Shown piece by piece: positions 33,809-57,924 of a stretch of 64,000 nt of DNA. The translations under genes were made by a program, and so were the position numbers. Source of the stretch: an uncultured Gammaproteobacteria bacterium (GTDB lineage: Bacteria > Pseudomonadota > Gammaproteobacteria > UBA9214); the NCBI GenBank assembly GCA_963701455.1, contig CAVPAE010000007.1, forward strand, positions 223,761-287,760, given 5' to 3'. Below the pieces are notes generated by a model. That model was given only the letters and a program-made list of their open reading frames with translations, was not told the origin of the DNA and made no database searches. The stretch's first letter is position 1, and the number at the start of each line of letters is the position of its first letter.

Positions 33809-33861
33809 ATGCTGTTCTGTTTCCTGAATTAGCAATACCCGGAACACCGGAAATAGCGCCC

Positions 33862-42233: not shown

Positions 42234-42917
42234 TCAAAGTAAAGAAGGATCTCTCCGGGGATCGGTCTGTCTTGTCAATGCCTGGTATTCACGCACCAGG
42301 TCACCGGCACTCGCAAAACCCTCCATGCGAACCCAGCCTGTTTGCGGTGCAGCATGCATGAATGTCAACGGTATGTGATTCATCTTGTCGCGCCGGTATG
42401 CATCAAAAGCTTTCAGCACCGCCACGATGTCTTCACGATCCCCGGTCAGAAACGTCCAGCCTGTGCTGGCCTGGAAACGCTGCGCATATTCCCGAAGTTT
42501 TGCCGGAGTATCATGCTCAGGATCGATGGTAACTGAGATCATTCGAACATTATCCGCTTCAGGACCAAGGGCCTTCCGGGTCTGGGTAAAGCTGGCACTC
42601 AGGACCGGACAGATAGTTGTGCACGTGGTAAATATAAAATTCAGCATCACCGGCTCATTACCCTCCAGCATGTCGTGCAGGGAAACCTTCCTGCCGTCCT
42701 GATCGGTCAGTACGACATCGGGCACCTGGTATTCCTGTTCCTTGCGGACATAGCCCTTTTGCTGCAGCATCTGCCTGTGCTGCGAATGATCAACTCCATG
42801 CTGGTGCATATGGTGGGCAGCATCTCCGTCATCCAGGGCATGACCGGACGATGCCATGCCGAACGTAACCAGCAGGCCCATCATCCTGCCCGCAAACCTT
42901 ATTTTGTTATTCAGCAT
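42234..42917 (-). CDS. SCO1/SenC-family thioredoxin-like copper chaperone
   Basis: Membrane anchor, His-rich stretch (HHMHQHGVDHSQH), CxxxCP motif (FTTCTTICP), DPEHDT motif. Start at MLNNKIRF (42917). Confidence 0.8.
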   Translation of the reverse strand: MLNNKIRFAGRMMGLLVTFGMASSGHALDDGDAAHHMHQHGVDHSQHRQMLQQKGYVRKEQEYQVPDVVLTDQDGRKVSLHDMLEGNEPVMLNFIFTTCTTICPVLSASFTQTRKALGPEADNVRMISVTIDPEHDTPAKLREYAQRFQASTGWTFLTGDREDIVAVLKAFDAYRRDKMNHIPLTFMHAAPQTGWVRMEGFASAGDLVREYQALTRQTDPRRDPSLL

Positions 42918-42985
42918 GTCGTATTCTCCTTTTGTAATAACGTCCCTGCTTGTTGATATTCCCCGCGGCAGAGCCACAGCCGCTT

Positions 42986-44707
42986 CTAGTTGACGACCCA
43001 GTCACTCACTTTTATCAGCTCCGGATTTTCATCACCGCTGAGTTGCACGATATAACAACCTTTTGATGCATAGCGCTGACCAGGGCCAAAACTCAGCCGG
43101 GGAAACACGGCAATTGCTGCATCCTGATCTGTCATCATGTCGAAAGATTCCAGGAAATAGTCCCGGTAGAACTCGCCACGCATATGTTTTATGGCGTCCG
43201 GCAACATCCAGCCAAGAAAATACATCCTCGACTGGATTGCCAGATTGGTAGCCGGAATACCCCGCACCTTGAGCCATTGCTGCAGCGCCATCTGCCTGTA
43301 TTTATTTTCTTCGGGAAGGCTTTCCGGATAAGTCAGATAGAGAATGTTGCGCATCCCGGCGGGAACAAGATCCAGCCTCCCTTCCAGCAGGCTCGCAGAG
43401 GCAAACAGCATGGCGTCCCTCTCCTGATTCACAACCTGGCTACGCAGAGCTTCGGTGAGATCTTCCGCAGCAAGCCACAGCAGCACCACTGGCGCAGCTT
43501 GTTCATCCTCTCCTCGCCACCATGTCGCCGGCAGGGCACCGTTATCTTCGGGCTGCCGGAACTCCGGGACACCTCCTCCATATTCAGCCCAGGCATCCTG
43601 GAACCCTCGCGCAAGCATCTCCCCCTCGCTCCCCGGCCGGTACACCTGAATGACCCGGGTATCCGGCCCGACCTTCCCGGATGCCTGCAGAAACTTGGCC
43701 GCGGTTTCTCCCTCCTGGTAGAGCCCCCTGGAGAAATACAAGGTATACCAGTCGGATTTTGAAACTACCGGCTGATCAGTCACCGGGAAGATATTGGGTA
43801 TTTCATTGTCCTCGCAGAAGTCATGAATTGGCGCCCATCTGCCGGAACCAATCCCGCCAAGCAGGGCAAACACAGGTCGCAACCGGTAATAGGATTCAAG
43901 CTGCTCGCGCCAGGTTTCAGGCGGGCCGGTCAACTCCCACACATCGAGTGCGAGCTTGCGATAGGAACCGTACTGTTCGGTCTTGTAGAAAGGGCCCTGA
44001 CTGGCCCGGCGCAGATGAGGCCGGGTCTGGGTATTGCGCGCATCGATGTGCGCCTGCAGCACCGAAAGCATGGCATCACGATCAGTAGGGGACACACCAT
44101 CGGTCACCACGGTTGCAAAGCGCAGCGTCTCCCCGTCGAGCCCCGGAGCGTTGTTGACGGAAAGGTTTTTCAGGTAATGGATGAGGATCTCCATATCCCC
44201 CTCCTCCAGATCATAACGGGGCATTGCCTGGCTCAGCACCCTACCGTCCGCAGCCACACCGGTGCGCATAGCCCTGGCCAGGGTTTCTGCCGTATAGGGC
44301 GGACGGGCATCAACAGCCCGATTCTGGGACGGCAGCGACCAGCGCTCCGCAGCGCCCGGCCCGTGACCTTCGGCGGCAGGACTCCAGGCACCGGTACGCC
44401 GTCTCGGGACAAACAATTCCTTGCCATTGATCGGCCAGGTGACGATCGAACCCTCCACCGAGCCCAGTCCGCTGCGCTGGTGGCAGTTAATACAGGTAAA
44501 CATACGTCCATCCACGAATATATCCCCTGCGATGAGGGCCTGTACCGGTTCCCCGTCGGAGAGAATTCCTTCCCGGTAGAGACGCTCTCCCAACTGTAAG
44601 GTCGCATCCTCCTGAAGGCCCGCAGCCACAGCTGGACCCGGAACAAACGCGGTCCCTCCAACTACGCCGAGGAACAATAAACACCGGGTTATGTACCGTG
44701 GCATCAT
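42986..44707 (-). CDS. fusion of mono-heme cytochrome c domain (CINCH) with a type-I periplasmic-binding-protein (LivK-like) domain
   Basis: Signal peptide. A single CxxCH with a downstream Met-rich cytochrome c fold region. The C-terminal ~350 aa has the PBP-like alternating alpha/beta pattern. Confidence 0.65.
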   Translation of the reverse strand: MMPRYITRCLLFLGVVGGTAFVPGPAVAAGLQEDATLQLGERLYREGILSDGEPVQALIAGDIFVDGRMFTCINCHQRSGLGSVEGSIVTWPINGKELFVPRRRTGAWSPAAEGHGPGAAERWSLPSQNRAVDARPPYTAETLARAMRTGVAADGRVLSQAMPRYDLEEGDMEILIHYLKNLSVNNAPGLDGETLRFATVVTDGVSPTDRDAMLSVLQAHIDARNTQTRPHLRRASQGPFYKTEQYGSYRKLALDVWELTGPPETWREQLESYYRLRPVFALLGGIGSGRWAPIHDFCEDNEIPNIFPVTDQPVVSKSDWYTLYFSRGLYQEGETAAKFLQASGKVGPDTRVIQVYRPGSEGEMLARGFQDAWAEYGGGVPEFRQPEDNGALPATWWRGEDEQAAPVVLLWLAAEDLTEALRSQVVNQERDAMLFASASLLEGRLDLVPAGMRNILYLTYPESLPEENKYRQMALQQWLKVRGIPATNLAIQSRMYFLGWMLPDAIKHMRGEFYRDYFLESFDMMTDQDAAIAVFPRLSFGPGQRYASKGCYIVQLSGDENPELIKVSDWVVN

Positions 44708-44919: not shown

Positions 44920-46596
44920 CTAGCGACACGCCCGGTTCTTGCGGCAGCCTGAATCAAGACAATCGACAAGCCCGTCACCGTCGTTGTCGAGACTGTCAGA
45001 GCATGTGCCGCCCTTGCCTTCCACACCACCGCCAGTGCCACCCCCACCGGTGTCACCGCCTCCGTCACCTCCGGGGACCGGGCAGGACTTACCTTTCAGT
45101 CTGTCCTTACCGTCGCAGTCCTGGTCGATGCCGTCCCGCTTGATATCGCAGGCATCGGGGTTGATAGCGGCGTTGCTGTCATCACAGTCCGGTAACGTTC
45201 CGCAGTTTAACTCGGCATAGAAATTATCACTGTCGTTATCCGTACATGGGGGGGGCGGCGGATTGCTCAGCAGAGCGGATGCCGCGACCACGTCGACCAG
45301 TCCGAAACCGGAGTCGTTATCCGCACCGGCCTGGCCGATGTCCATGGCTGAATCCTGCAGGGATTGTTCGAGTTCGGCCACGCTGACACCGGGAAAGGCA
45401 CCGCGCAGCAGTGCCAGCGCGCCCGCGACATGCGGCGCGGCGGCTGAAGTGCCGCTCACGGACACATAGGAATCCGGGAACAGTCCACCGGAGGTCAGGT
45501 CCGCTGTCCTGACGTTCACACCGGGCGCGACCACTTCCGGATACAGGGTCCCGCTACAGGCCGATGGTCCGCGCCCGCTGGTCGAGGCGATGTTCAGCGC
45601 AGCGTCTACGGCGCCAACCGCGAAACCATCTGGATTATTGGCCGGGCTTTCACTGGATGACCCTGACGGCCCCTTGTTACCGGCGGAAAATGCCACGGCA
45701 ATACCGGCAGCCTTGAGTACCTGAATATCTGTCTCGAATTCCAGGTAACACTGATCCAGCAGTTGCGGGAATCCCCAGGAATTATTGACCACGTGCGGCG
45801 CATCATCACTCGCCGGGTTGCCGTCGGGATCCAGCAGCCATTGGAACCCCTGGTGAATGCCGCTCAGCGAGGCTGTCCCGCTGTCGTCAAAGATCTTCAC
45901 CGCGATCCACTGCGCGCCGGGCGCCACGCCGATTGCCGTACCCCCGGCATCTCCACCAACCGCCAGTCCCATGACCTGGGTTCCATGACCATTCCTGTCA
46001 TGGGGTGAGGCATGCTCGCCATTGGGATCGAACCAGCTGTTGTTACCGCCACGCCAGCGAGGAGCCAGGTCCGGATGGTTCACATCAACCCCGGTGTCCA
46101 TACCCGCCACAACCATACCGGTTCCGGTGTAGCCCAGCCCCCAGAACTCCGGTGCACGTATTGCATCGAGATTCCACTCCGATGTCGTGGCGGTCGCCGC
46201 TGCCGGCGCCGGAGCCTGGACACTGGCATCAAGCGTAATACTGTCCACCCCCGGAAGTCCGAGTAACGGCTGAATGACATCCGCCCTGGCCGTCACAGCA
46301 AGGGCATTGATCGACCATAACTGAATGAGCCGTTTTGCCCCGTTCCCCTGCAGGAAGGCGATGGCTGGTCCCTGGCTGGCATTCGCCGTATTCCGCAAGG
46401 CCTGGATCAGCGCTGCCAGTTCGACACCCCTGCCCTGCCCCTTCCCTGGGAATGCCTCCAGATCCACACGTTCGGAAAATCTGACAATGAATGCCACATC
46501 TTTCCCGTCCTGGATGGCTTGTTGCACTTCCGCTGTCATGGTGGCGGCCTGCACTCCTGGCCCCCATGCGGAAACGCAGACCATGCCAAACAGCAG
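44920..46596 (-). CDS. subtilisin-like serine protease (S8) with C-terminal Cys/Asp-rich DxDxDG module
   Basis: Catalytic triad contexts: VAGMDTGVD (Asp), HGTQVMG (His), GTSAAAPHVAGA (Ser). The C-terminus has ...DIKRDGIDQDCDGKD..., a Gly-rich run and further Cys. The start is uncertain: the ORF 5' end (MRRNDGSGLVQ) is encoded by repeat C, so GTG about 46596 or ATG 46575 are more likely. Confidence 0.8.
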   Translation of the reverse strand: MLFGMVCVSAWGPGVQAATMTAEVQQAIQDGKDVAFIVRFSERVDLEAFPGKGQGRGVELAALIQALRNTANASQGPAIAFLQGNGAKRLIQLWSINALAVTARADVIQPLLGLPGVDSITLDASVQAPAPAAATATTSEWNLDAIRAPEFWGLGYTGTGMVVAGMDTGVDVNHPDLAPRWRGGNNSWFDPNGEHASPHDRNGHGTQVMGLAVGGDAGGTAIGVAPGAQWIAVKIFDDSGTASLSGIHQGFQWLLDPDGNPASDDAPHVVNNSWGFPQLLDQCYLEFETDIQVLKAAGIAVAFSAGNKGPSGSSSESPANNPDGFAVGAVDAALNIASTSGRGPSACSGTLYPEVVAPGVNVRTADLTSGGLFPDSYVSVSGTSAAAPHVAGALALLRGAFPGVSVAELEQSLQDSAMDIGQAGADNDSGFGLVDVVAASALLSNPPPPPCTDNDSDNFYAELNCGTLPDCDDSNAAINPDACDIKRDGIDQDCDGKDRLKGKSCPVPGGDGGGDTGGGGTGGGVEGKGGTCSDSLDNDGDGLVDCLDSGCRKNRACR

Positions 46597-46617
46597 CAGA
46601 ATCACCTTGAGGAGAAA

Positions 46618-46784
46618 CTGAACAAGTCCTGATCCGTCATTCCGGCGCATGCCGGACAAAAGTGCATGGCGCGTTGAACGCCCGGAGGGCGGCCCGCAGG
46701 GCGAGCGAAGCGAGTCATCCAGGGAAATCAACAAGCTGGACCCCGGCCTTCGCCGGGGTGACGACTTATTCAGGGTTTCCTTGA
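46618..46784 (+). repeat. ~167-bp interspersed repeat family C, full copy
   Basis: Direct repeat of 44743-44908. The two copies flank the protease gene. Confidence 0.85.
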
Positions 46785-46804
46785 GCTTCAGGCTTTTCAT
46801 GGCA

Positions 46805-47308
46805 TCACTCCACAACGATGTGCTCTTGCCTGAAGTCACCGATCACCAGGGTGACCTGATCTCCAGCCTTGACGGCACGGCCGGGATTGGCAAAGAACAT
46901 AAAATAGTTCCGGTCCACCTTGGCAAACTTCGGTGCCTGGCGCAGCGGCCCGATCTTGGCCGAGACCGGCACCTGCAGCTTGTGGCCGTTTTTTTCCACG
47001 ATCAGCTGCGGTTTAATCTTGCGGTCCATGATGGCAGCGGCCTTTTCCGGGTCCAGCATCCGGAACCGGAAATCCAGCATGTAATCAGCCGCGGTCCGGC
47101 GGATCCCGATGACACGTATCCCCCAGGGATCTCCGGGGTCTGCCTGTTCCTGCTCAGCAACGTTCGGCACTGCGACACTTGTTGCAAAGACCAGCTGTCC
47201 TGGCATAAACATGAACGCAAGCCCCAGCACCACCAGCAGGGCTACCGCGATTTGTACGGTATGGACGCATACCCCCAAGGTGATCCGCCTGGTCTGAGTC
47301 TGTTGCAT
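46805..47308 (-). CDS. membrane-anchored periplasmic hypothetical protein (167 aa)
   Basis: A single TM helix (IAVALLVVLGLAFMF) then a soluble domain. Lies between the MCO-like triad and the protease. Confidence 0.45.
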   Translation of the reverse strand: MQQTQTRRITLGVCVHTVQIAVALLVVLGLAFMFMPGQLVFATSVAVPNVAEQEQADPGDPWGIRVIGIRRTAADYMLDFRFRMLDPEKAAAIMDRKIKPQLIVEKNGHKLQVPVSAKIGPLRQAPKFAKVDRNYFMFFANPGRAVKAGDQVTLVIGDFRQEHIVVE

Positions 47309-47420
47309 GGTTTTATTCCCCTTCAGTCGTGATCAAACAATAGTCCGATCTCTCTACCAGTTCGTCAGTCATTGCAAGCAGTGGCGGGTACCTCCCCCAC
47401 TGGAGAGGTACCCGGAGCAC

Positions 47421-49244
47421 TTATTTCAGGATATCCACCCGGACGGTAGCCTCATTCGAGGTCGCGTCGAGATCATCCATGACGGTGTAGCCGAGCGCAT
47501 CCGAGCCGCGCTTGCCGGCGGTCGGCGTGTAGGTGATTGTGCCGTTACCGTTGTTCACCGCAGCGCCCTTGCGCGGGTTGCTGGTGATGATCACGGTATT
47601 GGCGACAACCGTACCGTCGTCGGTGTCATTGGCGACCACATTGATGGTCACGGAGTTGGTGCTGGCACCGGTATTACGCATCACCGTGGCGTAGTCGTCG
47701 TTGGCTACCGGAGACTGATTACCTGGCGCCGCATTGACCGTGACTGTGACCGTCGCGGAGTCGACACCACCATTGCTATCAGAGATGTCATAGGTGAAGG
47801 TTTCGTCACCGGAGAATCCCGCCAGCGGGCTGTAGGTCACGGTATTGCCATCCGTCGTGGCCGTTCCACCATTATCCGTTGCACCTACCGCAGTTATCGT
47901 CAGCGCATCGCCATCCACGTCGGTATCGTTGGCCAGCACGTCGAGACTGTTGTTGATCGAATCCTGGGCTACGCCAAAGGGATCGTCGACTGCAACCGGA
48001 TCATCGTTGAGCGGCGTTACCGTTACGCTCACGGTCGCGGCATTGGAAATATTCCCTGCCGTATCACGAACCGTGTAGGTGAAACCGTCCGCCCCGCTGA
48101 AATCGGGACTCGGGGTATAGGACACGGTACCGTCGTTAATCGCAACAGCCTGACCGTTGACCGCCGGACTGGCGATCGCCACTGTTGCCAGATCAATCGG
48201 ATTCCCGACAGGCGTATCGTTTGCCAGGACGCTGATGCTGCTGCCTGTCGAATCCTCCGCCACGGACGACACATCATCGACCGCCGTTGGCCCGGGTACC
48301 GCCGCGGCCACCGACAGATTGGTGAGCATCCCGCTACGCAGACGCCGGTCATACACGGGGTAGGTACCATTGGCGGCCGGCGTGAAGATCGCATCCTTTG
48401 TCTTGCCAGCGGCCATCAACACCGTGTGCTGCACGCGCGGGAAGGGATAGACATTGCCGTCCTCTGCAACCAGGGTCATGTGCTGGCCCTGCAATACCAT
48501 GGCATGGTCTTCCAGGCCTGCATTGAGCAAGCGGACCAGTGTATTGCTGCCTGCTGTACCGGCAGGCAAAGGCGCATCACCGGGCACAAAGGGGGCGCCA
48601 TTGACCAGGAAATATTTCGGTGCATAGTTGATCGTGCTGGGATAGCTTGCTGTCCCGTAGGTGCCACCGGCCACGGCTGCGTGCAGGGCCGGATCGATCT
48701 CGCTGTACAACAGCGACACCTCGCTATCATAGGAAATACCCGCATAGGCCTCTCCGGTCTGCGCATCGTGCGTCACCGCGCCGTACAGGCCCATCTGCAC
48801 CTGCACCGCCGGGTGTGTACCACTCGAATACAGGAAGGTCCCCGGTTTGAGGTTGCTCCATGCATAGATCCCGGTGGCTGCAGGGAGCGTCTCGTGGGTA
48901 AACGAACGCACCCGCTGCCGGCCCTGGTCATCGGTAAAAAACACCGGTGTCATTGCCGCCTGCTGGCCGGAGATCACGATCGACACCGGACTGGCGAGTT
49001 CATTACGCAGGTTGACCGTGAGCGTAGTGTCACCTACCGGCACCGTCAGCTGCGGGCCCGGTACGGTTGGCGTGCATGGCACACCCGTGTCCAGCCCGTA
49101 GCCCCACATGGTTATCACTGTGCTATCCGGCATGGTCAGGGTCGTCGTGCCGGCGCAGAGATCGTAAGTCACCGCACCGGCCTGGCCGGCAGCCGTCAGC
49201 AGGGCGGTGAGTGCCACACCTTGTTTGATTGATCTTATGTTCAT
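47421..49244 (-). CDS. secreted cupredoxin/multicopper-oxidase-like protein with degenerate Cu sites + C-terminal tandem Ig-like (cadherin/VCBS-like) domains
   Basis: Signal peptide. N-terminal ~330 aa are paralogous to the 49266 and 50569 genes (MWGYG..PGP.L.V; LEDHAMVLQGQHMTLVAEDGN aligns with HPFHFHGNHVTLIGRDGR). There is no HCH motif. Three Ig-like repeats (VAEDSTGSSISVLANDT..., ...LDVLANDTDVDGDALTI...). The 641-aa antisense ORF is R/G/H-rich junk. Confidence 0.7.
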   Translation of the reverse strand: MNIRSIKQGVALTALLTAAGQAGAVTYDLCAGTTTLTMPDSTVITMWGYGLDTGVPCTPTVPGPQLTVPVGDTTLTVNLRNELASPVSIVISGQQAAMTPVFFTDDQGRQRVRSFTHETLPAATGIYAWSNLKPGTFLYSSGTHPAVQVQMGLYGAVTHDAQTGEAYAGISYDSEVSLLYSEIDPALHAAVAGGTYGTASYPSTINYAPKYFLVNGAPFVPGDAPLPAGTAGSNTLVRLLNAGLEDHAMVLQGQHMTLVAEDGNVYPFPRVQHTVLMAAGKTKDAIFTPAANGTYPVYDRRLRSGMLTNLSVAAAVPGPTAVDDVSSVAEDSTGSSISVLANDTPVGNPIDLATVAIASPAVNGQAVAINDGTVSYTPSPDFSGADGFTYTVRDTAGNISNAATVSVTVTPLNDDPVAVDDPFGVAQDSINNSLDVLANDTDVDGDALTITAVGATDNGGTATTDGNTVTYSPLAGFSGDETFTYDISDSNGGVDSATVTVTVNAAPGNQSPVANDDYATVMRNTGASTNSVTINVVANDTDDGTVVANTVIITSNPRKGAAVNNGNGTITYTPTAGKRGSDALGYTVMDDLDATSNEATVRVDILK

Positions 49245-49265: not shown

Positions 49266-50540
49266 TTATGGAATCGGAACACCGTTGGGCTCGACGATCA
49301 TCATGGTCATCATGCCGCCCGGAAAGATGTCGTTGTTGGCAAGTTCTTTCTCTGCATGGGAATGCCACATGAAGAACATGCCCCCGTCCAGGTTCAGACC
49401 GCCCTCGCCCGGCGGCAGGTCACCAAACTGACCCAGGAACGGGCTGCCGCGGTAGAAGCCACCAAAGGTCATGTCCTGGATCGCCGGCAGTACCACCGGT
49501 AACTTCTTGCCGTGATCCGGCGCGTATTCGTTGGGTTCCAGCGGGTCGCCGTTTTTGTGGCCGTAGATGTCCCAGCCGAGCTTGTAACCGGTCCAGCTCC
49601 ACAGGGCATCATAGGTCGAGCCCGGCACCGCCTGCAGGGTGAAGTCGACACGCGCCAGGTCAGGTCCCGCTCCGGGCGTGCTCTCCAGCATGCGACCGTC
49701 GCGACCGATGAGGGTGACGTGATTACCGTGGAAGTGGAAGGGATGCAAGTCCCGTCCGGCGCTGATCACCCGCGCCAGTACTGTCTCACCGACATGCGTC
49801 CGCGGCAGGATGTTGTAGGGCTGGTTCGGCAGCCACGGGGCATATGCATCCGCCATGGTATCCGGACCATTGCGGCCGTTGATGAACCACAGCACCGCCT
49901 TGTGTTCGCTGTTGTCGATGACATCGTACAGTTCCAGCGAGGCGTAGTAATGGACCATCGGGTCCATTTCGGTGAGCAGGAACAGGTATTCCTGGTCGAA
50001 CGCCGTGTCCGGATGATTGTAGGCCTGGTTAGCAGCAGCAGGCCGGACGATGATGGCGCCCAGCAGGCCCATCTCGACCTGCAACTCCGGGCGCGTGCCG
50101 CTGTTGTACAGGTAGGTTCCGGGATTACTGGCGGTAAAGGTGTAGGTCACCTTGTCCGCTAGCGCGGGCCCGGTACTCTCCTGGGTCAACAGTCCCGCTG
50201 AGCCGCCGGTTGCACTCACCCCCTCCTGACCGGGAAATACCAGCGACACCGGCATGTTCGGCACGCCGAGCGCATTGGTCAGGTTGATGGTAATGGTATC
50301 GCCCTGGTCGACGATCAGCGTCGGCCCGGGATACTGCATTTCGCCGTCATCCAGCGCGTAACCCCAGACCAGCAGGCTGTCACCGTCCGGCGTGGAGATA
50401 ATGGCCGGTTTTGCAGTGAAGTCGAAGTTCGTTCCGGTGACGCCGTCGATGGCCGCCTCGGTCCTGGCACCCGCCAGGGACATCAGCAGCAGGGCAAATC
50501 CCGCCAGCCAGTGTCCGGTTTGCAGTGTTTTCGTATTCAT
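49266..50540 (-). CDS. multicopper-oxidase-like protein lacking the type-1 Cu cysteine (HSH instead of HCH)
   Basis: Signal peptide. HPFHFHGNH fits the HxxHxH motif. FMWHSHAE occupies the position of the HCH motif with Ser replacing Cys. Confidence 0.7.
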   Translation of the reverse strand: MNTKTLQTGHWLAGFALLLMSLAGARTEAAIDGVTGTNFDFTAKPAIISTPDGDSLLVWGYALDDGEMQYPGPTLIVDQGDTITINLTNALGVPNMPVSLVFPGQEGVSATGGSAGLLTQESTGPALADKVTYTFTASNPGTYLYNSGTRPELQVEMGLLGAIIVRPAAANQAYNHPDTAFDQEYLFLLTEMDPMVHYYASLELYDVIDNSEHKAVLWFINGRNGPDTMADAYAPWLPNQPYNILPRTHVGETVLARVISAGRDLHPFHFHGNHVTLIGRDGRMLESTPGAGPDLARVDFTLQAVPGSTYDALWSWTGYKLGWDIYGHKNGDPLEPNEYAPDHGKKLPVVLPAIQDMTFGGFYRGSPFLGQFGDLPPGEGGLNLDGGMFFMWHSHAEKELANNDIFPGGMMTMMIVEPNGVPIP

Positions 50541-50568
50541 GGACTTATCCCCCGGTTCCGGTCTGTTG

Positions 50569-51828
50569 TCATAACCCGATGTGGATTTCGGTCATCATGC
50601 CGCCGAAATCCTCGTCGTTGTTGCTGAGATAATTCAGGTTGGTGGTGTAGAGGAAGTAGGTCCCCGGCGCCACGCCCGCTGTATCGATAATTGCGTCAAC
50701 CGACTCGCCCCCGCCCAGCGTCACCGAAGCGGTGTCGTAGTACAGTTCCTCGCCGCTGGCCACGCCGCCGCCTTTCAGGATGCGCGCGCCGGTGCCCACC
50801 ACCTTCATGGTCAGCCCCAGGGTAGTCAGGGTGTAGTAGCGGGTGACGTTCAGGTTGGAGATGCGCAGCAGGATCTTTTGCCCGGCAGTGGCCTCAATCC
50901 GTGAACTGACCGGCTGGGAGGTGCTGAGCGGGCTAACAGCAGTTGGGAAATCCCCAGCTCTGACAGGATTGGCGCCACTCTCCAGTGTGTGCGGAAAGTC
51001 GAAGGTACTGGCATCGGCGGTATCAGGGTAGCCGCGGCCGTTCAGCATGGCATAGCGGTCGGTCATGTTGGCAAACGGCAGCGGCTGGGTATTCATGCTG
51101 GCATCGTGAAAGTCCGGATCGAAGGAACCGATCTGGATGGGAAACTCGACGTCATAGCCGGTTGAACCGTCGGTGTCGTTGTACACAAACTTGTTATAGC
51201 CACCAATGGTGGTCCCGTTCTGTGCCGGCCTGACATAGAGGTTGCCCAGCATGCCCATCTGCATGTGCTCGGTAGCCTCGACATGACAGTGATACATGTA
51301 GGTGCCGGGCTCCGCGAGATTGTAGTAATAGGTCACGCTGGCCCCCATGTTGATGGAGATGGTGGCATCCGGCACCCCGTCGAAGATATCCGAGGCGTTC
51401 GGGAAACCGTGGAAATGCACGGTATGCGGATCGGCCAGATCCGGACGCATCAACATGCCGTAGTTGGTCAGCGTCAGGTAGAATTCCTTGCCCTCGTCCA
51501 GCACGATGGTCGGCGCTGGAAAGTTTGCTGCCAGAATGCTCGCATCGAGTGCCTGGTCATGGGGCACACCCGTCAGGTCGACGAAGCTGAACATGTACTG
51601 CAGCCTGCGGATGTCATCGGACATGCTGACAAAACCGTCCCCGGCGCCCAGGTGCATGCACCTCACATTCGCGGTTGACTGTCCCTTGTGCATCGCCTTG
51701 TCAACTACGGCATCGCCATCGGTATCACCGGGACACTGCACCAGGGCCGCGGCACCTGCCAGGCCCGGCAATCCCGTCAACAGCAACAGGAGTGCAGCGG
51801 CAAGTGGATTTACGTGGTTGTCTTTCAT
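50569..51828 (-). CDS. multicopper oxidase with intact type-1 copper motif
   Basis: RBS GGAGGA lies 7 nt before ATG 51828. Signal peptide MKDNHVNPLAAALLLLLTGLPGLAGAAA. HTVHFHG, then YMYHCHVEATEHMQMGM (HCHxxxxHxxxxM). C-terminal cupredoxin domain ends FGGMMTEIHIG. Confidence 0.75.
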   Translation of the reverse strand: MKDNHVNPLAAALLLLLTGLPGLAGAAALVQCPGDTDGDAVVDKAMHKGQSTANVRCMHLGAGDGFVSMSDDIRRLQYMFSFVDLTGVPHDQALDASILAANFPAPTIVLDEGKEFYLTLTNYGMLMRPDLADPHTVHFHGFPNASDIFDGVPDATISINMGASVTYYYNLAEPGTYMYHCHVEATEHMQMGMLGNLYVRPAQNGTTIGGYNKFVYNDTDGSTGYDVEFPIQIGSFDPDFHDASMNTQPLPFANMTDRYAMLNGRGYPDTADASTFDFPHTLESGANPVRAGDFPTAVSPLSTSQPVSSRIEATAGQKILLRISNLNVTRYYTLTTLGLTMKVVGTGARILKGGGVASGEELYYDTASVTLGGGESVDAIIDTAGVAPGTYFLYTTNLNYLSNNDEDFGGMMTEIHIGL

Positions 51829-51889
51829 TGGTCTATCCTCCTGTGTGCCCCGGGGTGGAGGCATCCCACCCCGGAACGCTAGCCCTTGG

Positions 51890-54800
51890 TTACGGCGTGA
51901 ACTCATCAGCCCCGATGTCGTCACGGTTCCGCCAGACCGTCGTCGGCCGGGTATCGCCGTCAATATCAACAGCCGGTGCATTATCATTGTTGTTACCTGC
52001 GCCCCTGTCGATTGCGGCCAGCCTTGAGACTGACGTATCGACAAGGTGGTAATCACCCGTCGGTGCCAGCGGGCCAAAGCGGACCTGGATGAAGTTGCCA
52101 CCCTCGTCGAAGGCCGGTTGCGTGGCGATGGTGGTGGTGAGTTCCACCTGCTGGATGGTCTCGCCGTTGTCGGTATTGACGTATGGCAGAACAAACAGGT
52201 CCAGTGGATCGGTGATACCGCTGCCGTCACGGTTGTTGTTGTGGTAACCAGTAGTATCAGTCAGCAGGTTGAAACGCGGGTCCAGCGAACCGGTCGCACC
52301 GAGCACTGCCAGGTCCTGGTAGGGCGTGGCGGCACTGTTCAGACCGTACACCGCAGGTTCCACCGTCGTATCGATCTCGAAGAAGAACGACCGGTTGCGC
52401 CAGACAATGTTGTTCAGCAGCAACGGCTTGGAGAACACACCGTATTGATTTTGCCGGTTATTGGGTATTTCGCCGTTCAGTGCCGAGCTGTGCGCACGCG
52501 AGACGATACCCGCCGGTTGCGCCGTAGACTGGTTCGGACTGCCGGGTGCAAATGCCTCACCCGCCGTGGCCGTGGAGTCATTGTGGGCAACGGTGTTGTT
52601 GACGATGTTCACTCTCACCGTATCCTGCAGGGCGATACCGCCGGCAGCCATGCCCGCCATGTTGTTGACGACGATGTTGTTGACAATATCCAGCGGATAC
52701 CAGCCGTTTGGATTGTTTGATGCTTGCACATCTGTGCCGTTGACAGCCGCGGCCGCGATACCGCCACCGTCACCGGCACCGGCCTGGTTACCCTGGATGA
52801 CGTTGGACAGGATCTGTACCGGACCGGACCCCGGGCTCAGTGCGCCGGGATTCAGGGCCGCAGCGCCGCCGATGAAGATGCCACCGCCGTTGCGTGCCTG
52901 CCCCTGGTTAAAGGACTGGTTGAACATGATGGTGTTGTTGGCGATGAGACCCGAGAGCACCGTATTTCCGGATCCAAAGCCGCCACTGCGGCCATAGTGG
53001 CCGATGCCGCCGCCGTCACCCTGGGTGAAGTTACCGCAGATGGTGTTGTCCGTTACCTGGTAACTGTCACTGCCGTGATACAGGCTGACACCGCCACCGG
53101 CACCATTGCCGCTGCCGTTCCCGGCAATCAGATTATGGTGGATACGGATGTTGTCATTGAAGCCGTCCTGGTAGACCAGATTGGCGCCCTGTTCAAGGGC
53201 CAGGAACGGATGACCGACGCGGATACCGCCGCCGTAGATGCCATGATTGCCGAAGATACGGTTATTAGACATTTCCAGGTTTTCGGCATAGCCGTTGACC
53301 ACGATACCGCCGGCACTGTCCGACCCGGTAATGCTGAGGCCGTCGATACGTGACACATTTTTACCGAAAGTGTCGTCCTGCGTACTCCCTGTACCATCCA
53401 GGCCCAGCACGATGATGCCGGGGCCTTCCTCGGTGAACAGGACGTCCGGTTCACCGGCCACGCCGAACCCGACCTCCTGGGCCGGCAGCAGGTGATACTT
53501 GCCCTGGGTGTGCAATGTCTCGACATCCTGGCGCCAGGCGGTGATTTTCTCGCCCGGCGACTTGATGGCGCTGATGGTGGTGGAAGCGCCCGAGCCCTGC
53601 AGGCGCACCGGCTTGTGCATGATGACCAGTTCCTCGTACTCGCCCGGCGGCACCAGTATCAGGTCACCGGGACTGGCCACATCGATGGCAGCCTGGATGG
53701 AGCCGCCCGGGGCCACCTGTATTGCACCGCCACCCACCGTCACGGTGATACCCGCGACAGTCGACCGACCGTTGTCACCCCGGGTGATCTGCAACTGACC
53801 GGTGGTGGTACCGGCGGTCACCGTGCCGCTGATGGAACCGTTCGACCAGCTGACGTTCGTCAGTGGAACGCCGCTGATAGTGACGCTACCCGTCCCCTGG
53901 GAAGCGCCGAAGCCATAGTCGCGGCCGCCGGGGTCCTGGGCTGCCGTGATCGTGATTGACTGCGTGCCGTCGGCAACATACGGATTGTTGCCGTTGGGTG
54001 CCGGTGCGTCGACGTATGGTCCGCTCAGTGAGCCGACTACCGACCAGATTACCGGCGTACCATCCTGGTCCCGGCAGTCCAGCGGCTGCTGGTTCGGGCC
54101 CGTAAAGGCTGCGACGGGTACCACCGGTGTATCCAGGAAGGTGGTCACGCCCGGCATGTACTGGAAGGTGTAGCAGAACTGGCTGTACTGCGAGTTATAG
54201 TTCGGATCCGTGACGAAACCACCGGCACCATCGGGAATGGGGCCCGGATCATTCATGCAGGTGGTGACCATGTTCGGCGAAGTGCCACTGGCACTTGCAT
54301 TGCTGTTGGTAAACATGGAGGGCAATACCGCATTGAACGTGCCCCAGCGGTCGGAGTAGGTGCGCGCATACTCCCGCCCCTTCCAGTCGCGAATCGACAC
54401 CGGCAGGTAGGGCGGCGAGTACTTCTCGCCGAAGGTCGGTGAATTGGGGTCAAACTCGTTCGACAGATCGTCGAGAATGAACCCTGTTACCTTCGCCGCC
54501 ACCGGCACCTGGGTGAACATGAAGAAGTCGGCCGCCGCGTTCTTGCCATCGGTCAACAGGACCTGCTTGCGGTCGCACAACGGGGTATCGGTGCCGGCCA
54601 GGAATGGTGATTCTCCTGGAATCGGGAATAGCGAGAAATCATCGGGCACCAGGTGCAGGTCACCGACACAGACCGGTGGCAACAGTTCAGGCGCCGGCAC
54701 GAACTCATCACCGAAGTCCACGTTGCGGTCTTCTTCCTTGAGTGTCTGGTAGACCGGGTGCTCACCGGTAGCGACGATGTAGATGCCCTTGGGCAAGGAA

Positions 54801-57022
54801 TCCACCTCGGCAGCGCCCGAATCGACGCCACCCGGCACGTAGGAATCGAAGGCATAACCACCGTCGAACACCGCCGGGCGTACCTGGTTGTAGTTACGTA
54901 TGCCGTCGTAGCAATCCGTCGGTACCGAACCATTGACCATGAAAACGTCACCCTGGCAGCCGGTCGGGATGTTGTCGTCCCAGCTGTCAGTGGTGCTTAT
55001 CTGGATGGCATCACCGCCGTCGAAGCTGCCGTTTTCCGAATCGGCCAGCGGCGCACAACCGTTGAGCGGATCCAGCGCAGGGTAGTCGAAGTCCTCGGCG
55101 CCCGGGAAGTTGCCAAATGGATAGTTATCCACATCCGCCAGTGTCTGGCAGCCATCGCCGTTGAGGTCGTCAATCACGCCATCGCCACCGGGGGGAATAT
55201 TATCCTCGTACAGGACCACCTGGATGCGCGGTATACCCGGCTCCCACAACTCGGCGCCGGCATAGGCCGGATCGTCCTCGGCGCGGGTCACGGCATAAAA
55301 GACGATTCCCGAAATGCCGCCGTTCTCACCGATCACGTAGGGTTTCTTGCCCCACTGGATGACATTGGTCTGGCCGAGGAAGGCCTGTACGCCCTGGGTC
55401 AGCACCGGCCCGGTCTCGGTACGGTAGGAAGCGCCACCGTTCTCTGACTGGGGCTGGGGATTGAGCACGCCATCAAATGACCAGGGATCATTGGGGTCGA
55501 CCGGCCCGCCGTCATCCACGATGATGGTTGCACCGGTTGCCTTGTAGCGGGTAAAGCCGACTTCCGCGACCAGCCAACTGAAGAAGGGGAATACCTCGTC
55601 ATAGGGCGCGGCCCCGCCAAGGTCCGTGGGGAATCCCTGGTAGATGGTGCCATCACGCCAGCGCAGCGCGGTGCCCTCTTCGAACATCGGCGCCTCTCCG
55701 GCGTCCCAGAAGCCGTTTTCGTTCTGGTCGTTGAATACGTGTTGTTCGACACGGCCAAACCAGGCAAACACCGGCACATCCAGCAGGCTGCAGCTGCCAC
55801 CATTACACTGGCCGTTCAGAACGGTGACACCCTGGGAACCGAAGATGTAATCCAGATTCTTGTCCCAGATCGCCAGCTGGTAATTGCCATCGGGCACGCC
55901 GGAAATAGAGAACTTGCTGTCCTCGTCACAGGGGACCGCGATGACACCCTGGCCGATATTGACTGCCAGGTCGTTGAGACCAACCCAGCAGCCGGGTACG
56001 GGTGCCCCGGTATGAAAAGCAAAATCCGGCGGGCGCGAGTTATGGATACTGCGCACCTGGCCGGTGATAGTGACACCACCGCCGAGTGTGGCACCATTCT
56101 GGAGTCCTTCCCTGACGAAACCCATAAACACGTGCGGGCCTGGCGGGCCGAACTCGGTGAAGAACGGCGGTTCATTAGCCTTCACCCAGGCATCGATAAT
56201 CTTCTTGCCCTCGAGGGTGGTGGTCTGTGACCAGCTGGTCGGATCGCCATTTGCATCGGTGGTTGGTGGAACTGCCTGGATGCCATACTTGGCCGGGACG
56301 AGGTTCTTGATCAGGGCGATACCGTTCGCATCGGTCGTGACGGTGCCATCCCCCAGGCTGACAACATTGCCGGCATTGCCATAGGTGGTGCCGAGCGGGT
56401 TGCCGAAGGCATCCGTGGTGATCTGCTGGCCGGAGATACCGTAGCGACCACCGGCATCCTCGAGCAGGATATTGAATCCGCCCAGCCCGACTTCTTCCGG
56501 GGTATCCGGTGCACCGTTGATAGGCCAGTTATCCTCGAAGATGAAGATACGGATCTGCGCCGTGGGAACAGGATGCTCATTGACGCTGATCGGGACAATG
56601 ACCTGACCCGCCGCGATCTGCGCACCGCCCATGCTGAAGCCTGAATCGGGCAGTATGGACACATAGTAGCGCTTGTTGTCATCCAGGGCTGGCAGGGAGG
56701 AAGGATCACTGGAATGACCTTCCGCGACGACCGGCAGGTAGCTCTTGTGGAAGTTCACCGACAGGCAGTCAGCCTCAAAATCAGGCTGGCAGGTCTCCCC
56801 CGGCACGATGTCGTAGGTGACATCCTCTTCAATCAGCCAGCGATAAGCCGGAACAGGTACCGAGCCGCCATTGGCGTCAACGCCGGTTACATTCAGGACA
56901 GGCACTGCAGCCGCCACAGGCCAGGCAATCAGCACGCAGGTGAGCAACGCCACAAGACCTGAGTAGCGGCTGACAAGCAATTCCCCCCAACTCTTTTCCC
57001 AATGAATAGTGATTGCGTTCAT
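51890..57022 (-). CDS. giant (about 1700 aa) secreted/surface protein: N-terminal signal-anchor, SdrD-B/carboxypeptidase-regulatory-like region, C-terminal right-handed parallel beta-helix repeats
   Basis: TM/signal segment LVALLTCVLIAWPVAAA. The C-terminal ~500 aa have repeated beta-helix rungs (NNRIFGNHGIYGGGIRVGH; NLIAGNGSGNGAGGGVSLYHG; NTICGNFTQGDGGGIGHYG; NNTIMFNQSF; NVIQGNQAGAGDGGGIAA; NNIVVNNMAGMAAGGIALQD). The antisense ORFs are low-complexity. Confidence 0.7.
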   Translation of the reverse strand: MNAITIHWEKSWGELLVSRYSGLVALLTCVLIAWPVAAAVPVLNVTGVDANGGSVPVPAYRWLIEEDVTYDIVPGETCQPDFEADCLSVNFHKSYLPVVAEGHSSDPSSLPALDDNKRYYVSILPDSGFSMGGAQIAAGQVIVPISVNEHPVPTAQIRIFIFEDNWPINGAPDTPEEVGLGGFNILLEDAGGRYGISGQQITTDAFGNPLGTTYGNAGNVVSLGDGTVTTDANGIALIKNLVPAKYGIQAVPPTTDANGDPTSWSQTTTLEGKKIIDAWVKANEPPFFTEFGPPGPHVFMGFVREGLQNGATLGGGVTITGQVRSIHNSRPPDFAFHTGAPVPGCWVGLNDLAVNIGQGVIAVPCDEDSKFSISGVPDGNYQLAIWDKNLDYIFGSQGVTVLNGQCNGGSCSLLDVPVFAWFGRVEQHVFNDQNENGFWDAGEAPMFEEGTALRWRDGTIYQGFPTDLGGAAPYDEVFPFFSWLVAEVGFTRYKATGATIIVDDGGPVDPNDPWSFDGVLNPQPQSENGGASYRTETGPVLTQGVQAFLGQTNVIQWGKKPYVIGENGGISGIVFYAVTRAEDDPAYAGAELWEPGIPRIQVVLYEDNIPPGGDGVIDDLNGDGCQTLADVDNYPFGNFPGAEDFDYPALDPLNGCAPLADSENGSFDGGDAIQISTTDSWDDNIPTGCQGDVFMVNGSVPTDCYDGIRNYNQVRPAVFDGGYAFDSYVPGGVDSGAAEVDSLPKGIYIVATGEHPVYQTLKEEDRNVDFGDEFVPAPELLPPVCVGDLHLVPDDFSLFPIPGESPFLAGTDTPLCDRKQVLLTDGKNAAADFFMFTQVPVAAKVTGFILDDLSNEFDPNSPTFGEKYSPPYLPVSIRDWKGREYARTYSDRWGTFNAVLPSMFTNSNASASGTSPNMVTTCMNDPGPIPDGAGGFVTDPNYNSQYSQFCYTFQYMPGVTTFLDTPVVPVAAFTGPNQQPLDCRDQDGTPVIWSVVGSLSGPYVDAPAPNGNNPYVADGTQSITITAAQDPGGRDYGFGASQGTGSVTISGVPLTNVSWSNGSISGTVTAGTTTGQLQITRGDNGRSTVAGITVTVGGGAIQVAPGGSIQAAIDVASPGDLILVPPGEYEELVIMHKPVRLQGSGASTTISAIKSPGEKITAWRQDVETLHTQGKYHLLPAQEVGFGVAGEPDVLFTEEGPGIIVLGLDGTGSTQDDTFGKNVSRIDGLSITGSDSAGGIVVNGYAENLEMSNNRIFGNHGIYGGGIRVGHPFLALEQGANLVYQDGFNDNIRIHHNLIAGNGSGNGAGGGVSLYHGSDSYQVTDNTICGNFTQGDGGGIGHYGRSGGFGSGNTVLSGLIANNTIMFNQSFNQGQARNGGGIFIGGAAALNPGALSPGSGPVQILSNVIQGNQAGAGDGGGIAAAAVNGTDVQASNNPNGWYPLDIVNNIVVNNMAGMAAGGIALQDTVRVNIVNNTVAHNDSTATAGEAFAPGSPNQSTAQPAGIVSRAHSSALNGEIPNNRQNQYGVFSKPLLLNNIVWRNRSFFFEIDTTVEPAVYGLNSAATPYQDLAVLGATGSLDPRFNLLTDTTGYHNNNRDGSGITDPLDLFVLPYVNTDNGETIQQVELTTTIATQPAFDEGGNFIQVRFGPLAPTGDYHLVDTSVSRLAAIDRGAGNNNDNAPAVDIDGDTRPTTVWRNRDDIGADEFTP

Positions 57023-57516: not shown

Positions 57517-57924
57517 TCAGTGGCGCAGGCTTTTGCTTATGGTCCCCTCGACACGGGCCAGTATATCTTCTATGCAGGAGTCGTCTCCCTTTGAGAGAAA
57601 ACAGTCCGCGCCGTTCCGGAAGGCCTCCTGACGATACTCGGGCAGATCGTAGCTGGTAAGAATAACGATCACAATGTAGTCATACACCAGCTTTATCTTT
57701 TTGGTCACCTCCAGTCCATTTTCTCCAGGTAACTGGATATCCATAAAGATAATATCCGGACGCAGATACTCAACCTTACTCAAGGCCTCTCCTCCATCTC
57801 CAGCCTCGTCAACACCAATCAACGGGAAGTACGAGAGCAATATATCCGAGAGTGAATTTCGGAATGTGACATTGTCTTCAACAAGCAGCGCATGGAACAT
57901 TGATGCCTCCTCAGCCGAATGCAT
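57517..57924 (-). CDS. single-domain response regulator (CheY-like receiver)
   Basis: LLVEDN...DIIFMDIQLPGENGLEV...ILTSY...K. Start is either ATG 57924 or 57900. Confidence 0.75.
   Translation of the reverse strand: MHSAEEASMFHALLVEDNVTFRNSLSDILLSYFPLIGVDEAGDGGEALSKVEYLRPDIIFMDIQLPGENGLEVTKKIKLVYDYIVIVILTSYDLPEYRQEAFRNGADCFLSKGDDSCIEDILARVEGTISKSLRH

Follow-up and report, generated by a model that had tools for sequence, protein, structure and literature searches.

A giant exported beta-helix protein consistently encoded with a heteromeric multicopper oxidase: a candidate scaffold subunit

Bacterial electron exchange with solid minerals is still explained largely by multihaem cytochromes. 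Copper-based routes, represented by OmpB, MofA and the cupredoxin cluster of strain ES-1, have been suspected, but to our knowledge have never been worked out. The 64,000-nucleotide stretch of DNA analysed here (the window), from an uncultured gammaproteobacterium, carries a triad of multicopper oxidase (MCO) genes and, directly upstream of them, a giant gene whose product is unnamed so far; clusters of this giant-bearing type have been noted before and never characterised. What kind of protein is the giant, and what role does it play beside the oxidase?

According to the open reading frame list and the translation, the giant gene occupies positions 51890..57022 and is the first of its operon, its assignment to the minus strand being a correction to an earlier sequence-only reading of this DNA. 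The frame ending at the stop at 51890 opens with a GTG at 57070 and spans 1726 aa, while the ATG at 57022 gives a protein of 1710 aa plus stop, and the length of 1701 aa reported earlier was a small miscount. The giant has more than 1700 homologs, the best 120 of which are all near full length (52-90% identity), and the frame is therefore no chance feature. Its N-terminus (MNAIT...LIAWPVAAA, followed by VP) forms a Sec-type signal peptide (residues 1-39; 56906..57022, minus strand), in which a hydrophobic core precedes a putative cleavage site between AAA and VP, and similar signal peptides are present in all 24 listed homologs. The protein is very acidic (189 Asp and Glu residues versus 74 Lys and Arg residues) and rich in Gly, Asp, and Asn.

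Structure prediction, performed on the giant as two separate halves, and structure comparison divide the exported protein into three parts. The N-terminal body (residues 40-991; 54050..56905, minus strand) comprises several beta-sandwiches resembling transthyretin, CnaB, and SdrD-B domains, with long Asp/Gly/Asn-rich insertions and conserved Cys pairs at 689/704, 785/816, and 922/950. It is followed by an IPT/TIG-like Ig domain (approximately residues 992-1097; 53732..54049, minus strand) and by a right-handed parallel beta-helix of the pectate-lyase-like fold (approximately residues 1098-1710; 51893..53731, minus strand), which is capped N-terminally by a NosD-like segment (1109-1153) and C-terminally by a sequence of the form DIDGDxRP...DIGADE. 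Both the C-terminal helix and the sandwich-like N-terminal part had been proposed from the letters of the sequence, and the predicted folds bear them out. The rung motifs described in the same reading are likewise real, and they are localised to residues 1254-1538: nine of ten matches to N-x-[IVLT]-x-x-N fall inside this segment, and five of six matches to G[GA]G[IV] lie within residues 1264-1419. On the helix, H1271, H1342, H1511, and C1329 are nearly invariant and may constitute a catalytic or metal site, so that a non-catalytic nature of the giant is unproven.

The giant belongs to no curated family, in keeping with the lack of a family assignment in the sequence-only reading: scans against Pfam, NCBIfam, and PHROGs returned nothing above threshold, and sequence searches of the PDB, with the single sequence or with a 60-sequence profile, gave chance-level matches only. 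SdrD_B scored 13 bits against a Pfam cut-off of 29.7, and an SdrD/MSCRAMM-type adhesin was rejected, the likeness being confined to the fold of single domains and the translation containing no LPXTG. A GlyGly-CTERM/rhombosortase substrate was also rejected, as the giant ends in ...DIGADEFTP. Two homologs (P0006 and P0010) show, by eye, a tail of GGGGGG, WWLP, a hydrophobic stretch, and basic residues, and no NCBIfam model reports GlyGly-CTERM in them. The family itself is large: at least 664 clusters (50% identity) match the giant's N-terminal part with E<=1e-30, and a one-genome-per-species collection contains 377 stretches that match. Members from distant phyla share 50-60% identity over approximately 1700 residues, and conservation that high across phyla exceeds that of typical adhesins. 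Even if the mechanism proposed below is wrong, the giant warrants its own curated family, and the labels 'SdrD B-like' and 'choice-of-anchor Q domain-containing protein' should give way to a more apt name.

The operon runs, on the minus strand, from the giant through MCO1, MCO2, MCO3, a small protein, an S8 protease, and a MofC-like cytochrome c to SCO1. The giant lies on the same strand as the MCO genes, as had been noted, with 61 nt rather than the stated 60 separating it from MCO1. This gap contains a GC-rich hairpin of 13 consecutive base pairs (51846..51879, minus strand), whose RNA fold has an energy of -30.6 kcal/mol and a z-score of -1.9; it was rejected as a terminator, since no U-tract (T-tract in the DNA) follows it, the terminator scan did not flag it, and its stability is not significant against shuffled sequences. 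MCO1 (419 aa; 50569..51828, minus strand, ATG at 51828; Pfam Cu-oxidase_3/_2) carries a T1 copper site and half of the ligands of a trinuclear cluster (H135/H138/H140, H180-C181-H182, H188, M193), which are invariant across 73-75 orthologs. MCO2 (424 aa; 49266..50540, minus strand) lacks the T1 cysteine according to Pfam and ligand conservation, and its HxxHxH (266-271) and H-S-H (393-395) motifs could contribute the four remaining histidines of the trinuclear cluster. Among solved structures, two-domain MCOs and the nitrite reductase NirK are closest to MCO1 and MCO2. These solved enzymes are trimeric, with copper sites at subunit interfaces. MCO3 (607 aa; 47421..49244, minus strand) combines two cupredoxin domains, in which no copper ligands are conserved, with three cadherin/Big_9 repeats C-terminal to them.

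Downstream of the triad lie a conserved small protein without family match (167 aa; 46805..47308, minus strand), found at 56 of 85 loci and also in the Cupriavidus cluster, and an S8 subtilase that bears a MopE-like, acidic double-disulfide motif at its C-terminus (44920..46839, minus strand), found at 50 of 85 loci, the true start of which probably lies downstream of the listed GTG. The MofC-like protein (42986..44707, minus strand) is a monohaem cytochrome c, whose CxxCH (residues 72-76) is invariant, fused to a periplasmic-binding-protein-like domain (Peripla_BP_6); this architecture agrees with MofC-like proteins as described in PMC5566968. The last gene encodes a SCO1/SenC copper chaperone (42234..42977, minus strand), found at 35 of 85 loci, a count limited by contig ends. 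Just upstream of the giant, a stand-alone response regulator (57517..57924, minus strand) is followed by a terminator-like site (57498-57483), and a homolog is present at 29 of 85 loci, mostly upstream of the giant. No type II secretion system (T2SS) genes were detected among the scanned window ORFs.

Comparison of 85 giant loci, 68 of which were informative (at least 1.5 kb of downstream sequence), reveals linkage of the giant to MCO genes at all 68. At 67 of them, MCO1 is either fused to the giant or encoded downstream of it on the same strand, including one locus (L044) where it is located approximately 5.6 kb farther downstream; at the remaining locus (L045), the giant has the MCO genes on its upstream side. 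The conserved operon was recovered from Methylocaldum, from a complete 4-Mb contig, and from others, and its carriers span several phyla, including organisms annotated as Desulfobacterota as well as the heterotrophs Ralstonia and Paraburkholderia. The giant and the enzymes are similarly well conserved: across loci, identities are 44-80% for the N-terminal part of the giant and 48-76% for MCO1, and the two are correlated (r=0.65).

In addition, the giant and MCO1 are fused in frame through cadherin-type linkers in at least six genomes (L004/5, L026, L041, L042, L070, and L076), and the same fusion occurs in proteins P0064, P0068, P0071, P0083, and P0091. The association with the MCO that had been suspected from gene proximity is therefore upheld by gene order at every informative locus and by in-frame fusions. 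A second clade (clade B), including Cupriavidus metallidurans CH34, Ralstonia, and Paraburkholderia, encodes MCO3::giant fusions of approximately 2700 aa within a colinear cluster, in which the CH34 proteins share 38% (MCO1), 37% (MCO2), 35% (MCO3), 31-32% (giant), 38% (small protein), and 34% (cytochrome) identity with those of the window. Extra T2SS genes or a secretin adjoin these clusters, which recalls the T2SS need of OmpB (PMC5566968). When the CH34 fusion protein was used as the query, the best 120 matches contained a Gallionellaceae protein (P0362) and no named ES-1 entry. The giant family thus comprises two architectures linked through independent gene fusions.

Linkage, fusions, conservation, the export signal, the splitting of copper ligands, the absence of a catalytic family, the charge, and the ES-1 literature all argue for the giant being an exported, non-redox structural subunit (scaffold or anchor) of a secreted heteromeric MCO, a reading that we regard, on balance, as slightly more probable than its negation. 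The giant probably holds the oxidase at the cell surface, and the label 'surface protein' given to it earlier is a presumptive one. The options offered by the sequence-only reading (adhesin, S-layer component, or polysaccharide-active enzyme) were too broad, given evidence that favours an oxidase-system subunit. In such a complex, MCO1, MCO2, and MCO3 would form a trimer like known two-domain MCOs, in which MCO1 would hold a single T1 copper and a single trinuclear cluster would sit at the interface of MCO1 with MCO2; copper would be supplied by SCO1, the complex would be matured by the S8 protease, and the trimer would be docked by the giant. The acidic giant could attach to polymers of the cell envelope, to a solid or cationic substrate, or to both, and keep the oxidase on the outer surface by means of a rigid beta-sandwich body and a glycan-binding-type beta-helix. 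The electrons of an insoluble donor would then pass to the T1 copper and O2, or would be exchanged between the oxidase and the MofC-like cytochrome. Of the candidate donors, mineral Fe(II) has the best support; because the operon also occurs in Desulfobacterota-annotated organisms and in heterotrophs, the oxidation of mineral Fe(II) is not its universal role.

A bolder version of the scaffold reading is advanced tentatively, and we consider it less probable than not. The giant may represent a new class of docking subunit that turns a heterotrimeric two-domain MCO into a surface machine for electron exchange with solid phases, its acidic sandwich body binding minerals or cations and its beta-helix binding the envelope. 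Such solid phases could be, for example, Fe(II)- or Mn(II)-bearing minerals or other insoluble reductants, and the conserved His/Cys patch on the helix might serve as an extra metal-relay or copper-delivery site. If true, this would be a copper-based counterpart of porin-cytochrome systems, widespread in sulfur and iron lithotrophs, methanotrophs, and soil Burkholderiales.

Among the alternatives to a structural subunit, the one that survives best, although we judge it unlikely, is that the beta-helix is a polysaccharide-active enzyme (epimerase, lyase, or hydrolase) that remodels the cell's own exopolymer or sheath, with the MCO cross-linking or oxidising the polymer. The best structural neighbours of the helix are indeed enzymes (AlgE epimerases, lyases, and GH87). 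However, identity to such enzymes is only 14-18% (17-18% for AlgE/AlgG epimerases and PL6 lyases), Pfam and NCBIfam give no above-threshold match to any Beta_helix, Pectate_lyase, or PL family, and many non-enzymatic adhesins, as well as NosD, share this fold. DPH is absent from the window giant, and a regular-expression search located DPH[DE], which we take to be the catalytic motif of AlgE/AlgG mannuronan C5-epimerases, in the last 650 residues of none of 120 homologs; an alginate epimerase or lyase was downgraded because of this missing motif. Alginate gene context is lacking as well, and the conserved operon contained no polysaccharide synthesis or export genes in the operons examined.

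Somewhat less probable still is a NosD-like module for copper-centre maturation, in which the beta-helix would pass copper or another ligand to the MCO subunits. NosD, which acts in N2O-reductase maturation as part of NosDFY, shares with the giant a right-handed beta-helix, a similar N-terminal cap, and an association with a copper enzyme. However, membership in the NosD family (TIGR04247) was rejected, as the giant scores 27.6 bits against a cut-off of 300 and matches only profile positions 1-44 of 377, and its homologs score similarly. Neither NosF/NosY-type ABC partners nor nosZ were found in the window operon or the homologous operons examined, approximately 1100 additional N-terminal residues have no NosD counterpart, and covalent, stoichiometric fusion to enzyme subunits is not what an assembly factor usually shows.

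That the giant is an adhesin or S-layer-type protein of the cell surface, independent of the MCO genes and only adjacent to them, is, in our estimate, very improbable. In favour of it stand the CnaB-, SdrD-B-, and IPT-type sandwiches and the beta-helix, parts from which many adhesins are built, and the acidic, Gly-, Asp-, and Asn-rich composition, but synteny at all informative loci in many phyla, two independent kinds of fusion to oxidase subunits, and the strong full-length conservation between distant phyla largely refute this possibility. A phage-derived tailspike or depolymerase has a negligible probability and is for practical purposes refuted: tailspikes are among the fold matches of the giant, but it has no PHROG match, no phage genes occur among the scanned window ORFs, its neighbours are cellular genes, and its context is a conserved chromosomal operon, so that neither a prophage tailspike nor a well-characterised unrelated family, which the sequence-only reading had named as grounds for abandoning its view, was encountered.

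Collectively, the unexplained 'large subunit' of the ES-1-type system emerges as a discrete protein family with an obligate link to a heteromeric oxidase whose copper ligands are split between subunits. Because the family is tied to the oxidase and its two architectures are joined by fusions, the hypothesis of a physical complex is directly testable, and tractable carriers include Cupriavidus metallidurans CH34, Ralstonia, Paraburkholderia, Amphritea atlantica DSM 18887, and Methylocaldum GT1BB. Literature searches for beta-helix or SdrD-type proteins paired with multicopper oxidases, or for 'choice-of-anchor Q', returned nothing relevant, and PMC6769254 and a Ferrigenium preprint do not treat the window-type cluster.

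The closest published system is Slit_1812-1818 of Sideroxydans lithotrophicus ES-1, which has the gene order of the CH34 cluster; the published account names the clade of CH34 as similar. Like the window, it contains two MCOs with copper motifs and a third without, small hypothetical proteins, SCO1, a cytochrome, and a very large component (PMC5566968, PMC12016527). PMC12016527 (AEM 2025) reports that its products are enriched on solid magnetite relative to Fe(II)-citrate and that Slit_1816, the large subunit, to which domains resembling adhesins and polysaccharide lyases are ascribed, shows the strongest differential expression; in He et al. 2017 (PMC5566968), the three MCOs are predicted to be extracellular. 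As bearing on the giant's role, these observations come from the other clade, at 31-32% identity, and concern differential expression only. The window shares the three tandem cupredoxin genes, two with copper motifs and one without (Pfam, ligand conservation; PMC12016527), and the combination of MofC-like cytochrome, periplasmic-binding domain, and SCO1/SenC in one cluster (PMC5566968). However, its ligand-less third cupredoxin protein lacks the adhesin/lyase-like portion: in the second clade, the giant part stands behind MCO3, third in the operon, whereas the window encodes it as a gene of its own at the head of the operon, which makes the window a variant architecture. The window operon also adds the S8 subtilase, and the clades are only approximately 31% identical. 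The giant is assumed to be equivalent to Slit_1816 on the basis of cluster order and the published description.

Like the window system, OmpB (GSU1394) of Geobacter sulfurreducens and MofA of Leptothrix are large, secreted, multicopper systems; they join oxidase domains to modules of the adhesion type and have a MofC-like protein (cytochrome c/periplasmic-binding domain) and SCO1 encoded alongside. All of these systems have been linked to redox chemistry with insoluble phases of Fe or Mn. Compared by description, however, OmpB and MofA are single polypeptides for which no giant beta-helix/sandwich protein has been described. He et al. (PMC5566968) state that OmpB requires a dedicated atypical T2SS and that ES-1-type MCOs are not homologous to OmpB or MofA. 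The closest solved relatives of the giant's partners MCO1 and MCO2 are NirK and the homotrimeric two-domain MCOs (PDB 3g5w, 2zwn, 3gdc), from which the window system differs in splitting its copper ligands among three different paralogs and in adding an obligately linked accessory protein of 1710 aa.

The giant gene, at 51890-57022 on the minus strand, is a real gene whose product carries an export signal. The ORF ends with a stop at 51890, and its longest form, from a GTG at 57070, encodes 1726 aa; translation from the ATG at 57022, for which the sequence-only reading had given 1701 aa, yields 1710 aa. The N-terminus (MNAIT...LIAWPVAAA, followed by VPVLNV) resembles a Sec signal peptide, and a comparable N-terminal start is present in 24 of 24 homologs inspected. 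The protein is strongly acidic (189 D+E versus 74 K+R) and, in homolog comparison, contains near-invariant Cys pairs (689/704, 785/816, and 922/950), consistent with an extracytoplasmic location, along with near-invariant H297, H327, H1271, H1342, H1511, and C1329. The beta-helix rung motifs previously read in the C-terminal third are genuine and restricted to that part of the protein: of ten N-x-[IVLT]-x-x-N matches, nine fall at residues 1254-1538, and of six G[GA]G[IV] matches, five fall at residues 1264-1419.

The giant was modelled with AlphaFold2 as two halves, using 60-sequence alignments. Residues 1000-1710 (pLDDT 88, pTM 0.91) comprise an Ig/IPT-like domain, a helix-capped beta-helix ending at approximately residue 1612, a low-confidence loop (1624-1644), and a short C-terminal cap that closes with DIDGDxRP...DIGADE. 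The high pTM of the 1061-residue part suggests that its domains may be packed into a compact body and not strung out like beads. These fold assignments stand, and the giant has no match to a known enzyme family. No curated family covers it: Pfam returned only sub-threshold fn3_3, SpaA, and SdrD_B matches, NCBIfam nothing beyond a NosD match limited to profile positions 1-44 (27.6 bits versus a cut-off of 300), PHROGs zero matches, and PDB sequence searches no meaningful match, in agreement with the earlier statement, which gave no family assignment. A role as a polysaccharide-active enzyme, to which the fold neighbours and conserved His and Cys residues could point, is unlikely, as the DPH[DE] motif is missing and no polysaccharide genes lie alongside. 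Two homologs, P0006 (74% identical) and P0010 (71%), carry a GGGGGG-WWLP-hydrophobic-basic tail in place of the usual DIGADE end, which looks like a GlyGly-CTERM/rhombosortase sorting signal; NCBIfam reports no GlyGly-CTERM-type signal in these tails.

The giant family is widespread and unnamed. More than 1700 homologs were found in a large protein collection, and the best 120 of these are nearly all full length (~1600-1800 aa, 52-90% identity); source names are few ('hypothetical', 'SdrD B-like domain-containing', and 'right-handed parallel beta-helix repeat-containing'). When the N-terminal part was searched with HMMER against all 1.84 billion cluster representatives, 664 clusters matched at E<=1e-30, a number that rises to 1265 at E<=1e-10. 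Among one-genome-per-species contigs, 377 stretches encode a relative, the closest being in one Thiohalomonadales MAG and one Pseudomonadota MAG (78-80%). Carriers include Thiohalomonas denitrificans, Methylocaldum (including isolate GT1BB), Hydrogenophilus, Sulfuricella, Thiobacillus denitrificans, Gallionella, Sideroxydans, Sideroxyarcus, Sedimenticola, and Amphritea atlantica DSM 18887, as well as Desulfobacterota, Acidobacteriota, Nitrospirota, Myxococcota, Anaerolineaceae, and Hydrogenedentes.

Operon linkage between the giant and the multicopper oxidase (MCO) genes is obligate. MCO1 (ATG 51828) is the next gene on the same strand, 61 nt past the giant stop. This gap contains a GC-rich hairpin of 13 consecutive base pairs with no U-tract, which is not significant against shuffles (z = -1.9) and was not called by the terminator scan; the scan placed a terminator-like site 3' of the upstream response-regulator gene, which together fits the giant as the first gene of the transcript. 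Homologous loci show a near-constant order of giant, MCO1, MCO2, MCO3, and a 160-200 aa protein without a family, followed usually by an S8 subtilase and then by SCO1/SenC and a ~570-aa cytochrome-c/periplasmic-binding-like protein, the last two lying on the other side of the giant in some loci. Where at least 1.5 kb is available beyond the giant stop, MCO1 lies downstream on the same strand or is fused to the giant in 67 of 68 loci, counting one (L044) in which it comes only ~5.6 kb later; the remaining locus (L045) has its MCO genes upstream of the giant. The median distance from the giant stop to the MCO1 alignment start is 97 nt, indicating short intergenic gaps, and identity to the window is correlated between the giant N-terminal part and MCO1 across loci (r=0.65, n=70). 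The stand-alone response regulator gene upstream of the giant has a homolog in 29 loci, mostly upstream of the giant. Both in the window and in Methylocaldum, the operon has genes for NarL-type regulators and HisKA_3 kinases at its flanks. One Acidobacteriota contig (CAYPNP010000001.1, 2882-47079; loci L023 and L051) carries two complete giant/MCO operons in tandem.

Several other genes surround the operon. A 696-aa protein with five PKD/K319L-like repeats and Sde0182_C segments (58174-60264, minus strand) is encoded just upstream of the response regulator preceding the giant. The NarL-type regulator (60617-61273, plus strand) adjoins a HisKA_3/HATPase kinase core (61340-62197, minus strand) and a PAS-domain protein (62194-63609, minus strand), two ORFs with a 4-nt overlap; another HisKA_3 kinase is encoded at 40248-41318. 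A secreted 696-aa protein (38055-40145, plus strand), whose gene separates the cytochrome genes from the oxidase operon, contains, as read from its translation, Sel1-like repeats and then a long ankyrin-repeat array. The S8 subtilase (44920-46839, minus strand), kept in 50 of 85 related operons, has a C-terminal MopE-like metal-binding motif/acidic double-disulfide repeat, and its true start is probably downstream of the listed GTG, which overlaps the 167-aa gene by 35 nt. A 641-aa ORF antisense to MCO3 (47307-49232, plus strand) appears, from its Arg/Gly/His-rich translation, to be a shadow of the G+C-rich coding strand and not a gene.

The invariant residues of MCO1 (H135-x-x-H138-x-H140 and H180-C181-H182...H188...M193) account for the T1 site and four trinuclear-cluster histidines. 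MCO2 retains H266-x-x-H269-x-H271 and H393-S-H395, with no cysteine and a Ser where the T1 Cys is expected, and its histidines could supply the other four trinuclear-cluster ligands; MCO3 has zero conserved copper ligands. Among solved structures, MCO1 and MCO2 are most closely related to two-domain MCOs (3g5w, 2zwn, and 3gdc) and NirK. Those proteins are trimeric and carry their copper sites where subunits meet, pointing to a putative heterotrimer with a single catalytic interface. Division of the ligands between the MCO1 and MCO2 paralogs (49266-51828, minus strand) would thus imply a heterotrimeric two-domain MCO with one trinuclear site, and we know of no such arrangement among solved structures. 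The signals read on MCO1, MCO2, MCO3, and the giant are of the Sec rather than twin-arginine type, consistent with copper loading by the SCO1 protein outside the cytoplasm.

Fused forms of the giant exist as well, with either MCO1 or MCO3 as the partner. In five protein clusters (P0064, P0068, P0071, P0083, and P0091; 2244-2393 aa), a linker of ~140-330 residues joins a complete giant to MCO1, with cadherin-type domains in three of the five according to precomputed Pfam, and in-frame giant::MCO1 fusions are also present in loci L026, L041, L042, L070, and L076 (Deltaproteobacteria-, Hydrogenedentes-, Acidobacteria-, and Gallionella-labelled contigs). In addition, tblastn against plasmids and chromids revealed a second, more distant clade (clade B), which aligns with residues 128-1710 at 31-32% identity and is carried by Cupriavidus metallidurans CH34, Ralstonia, and Paraburkholderia. 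The CH34 cluster encodes, in order, MCO1 (661 aa, 38% identity to the window), MCO2 (543 aa, 37%), a 2698-aa fusion (MCO3-type cupredoxin part 14-398, cadherin repeats, and giant 637-2696), a small protein (38%) followed by two further ORFs, and finally the cytochrome/binding protein (34%). A search with the CH34 fusion protein showed clade B to be frequent in Burkholderiales, Gallionellaceae, and some Acidobacteria, with members named 'choice-of-anchor Q domain-containing' or 'Ig-like domain-containing' by NCBI.

The strongest argument that the giant and MCO proteins may work as one physical unit comes from the two independent fusion types, each of which involves a different oxidase subunit. 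The beta-helix as a NosD-like copper-delivery module, suggested by a similar cap and the copper context, is improbable, as its score is low, ABC partners are missing, and it is covalently joined to the enzyme. An unrelated adhesin is scarcely credible, being contradicted by synteny and the fusions, and a tailspike is all but ruled out by PHROGs and gene context. The giant would be a stoichiometric subunit of a secreted heterotrimeric MCO, acting as its scaffold or anchor and displaying the oxidase on the cell surface for a substrate that is insoluble or surface-bound. The initial observation is confirmed and its interpretation supported with corrections; the hypothesis of a giant-MCO complex is now sharply testable.

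Two giant multihaem cytochromes are encoded ~8 kb beyond the SCO1 gene. One (30071-33847, minus strand; 1258 aa) has domains like those of MtrC/MtrF and 49 CxxCH motifs, and the adjacent one (33862-35748, minus strand; 628 aa) has 21. These fit a host equipped for extracellular electron transfer and by themselves provide no tie to the oxidase operon; they resemble the very-many-haem 'PCC3'-type clusters of Fe(II) oxidisers (PMC5566968), although no porin partner was found. The product of 42986-44707 has the same domain architecture as MofC-like proteins, which combine cytochrome c and a periplasmic binding domain (PMC5566968). T2SS-type genes beside clade-B clusters, namely a secretin gene upstream in CH34 (L086:35-1615) and an extra gspG/gspF/gspE set downstream in Paraburkholderia (L087:28931-32366), are reminiscent of the dedicated atypical T2SS secreting Geobacter OmpB. 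He et al. described the products of clusters of the Sideroxydans lithotrophicus ES-1 type as predicted extracellular, not homologous to OmpB/MofA, and offering 'fewer clues' to function (PMC5566968). In a 2025 proteomics study, ES-1 Slit_1812-1818 was enriched on solid magnetite relative to Fe(II)-citrate, and the authors noted similar clusters in Paraburkholderia and Ralstonia (PMC12016527). Solid Fe(II) is the sole candidate substrate for which there is any hint from experiment. Occurrence in Desulfobacterota and heterotrophic Burkholderiales cautions that mineral iron may not be the physiological substrate in every carrier. Since gene order and published descriptions agree between Slit_1812-1818 and the CH34/Paraburkholderia clade, Slit_1816 is very probably an MCO3::giant fusion. 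The giant family represents, as a gene of its own, the large subunit of this already noticed, uncharacterised extracellular multicopper-oxidase cluster.
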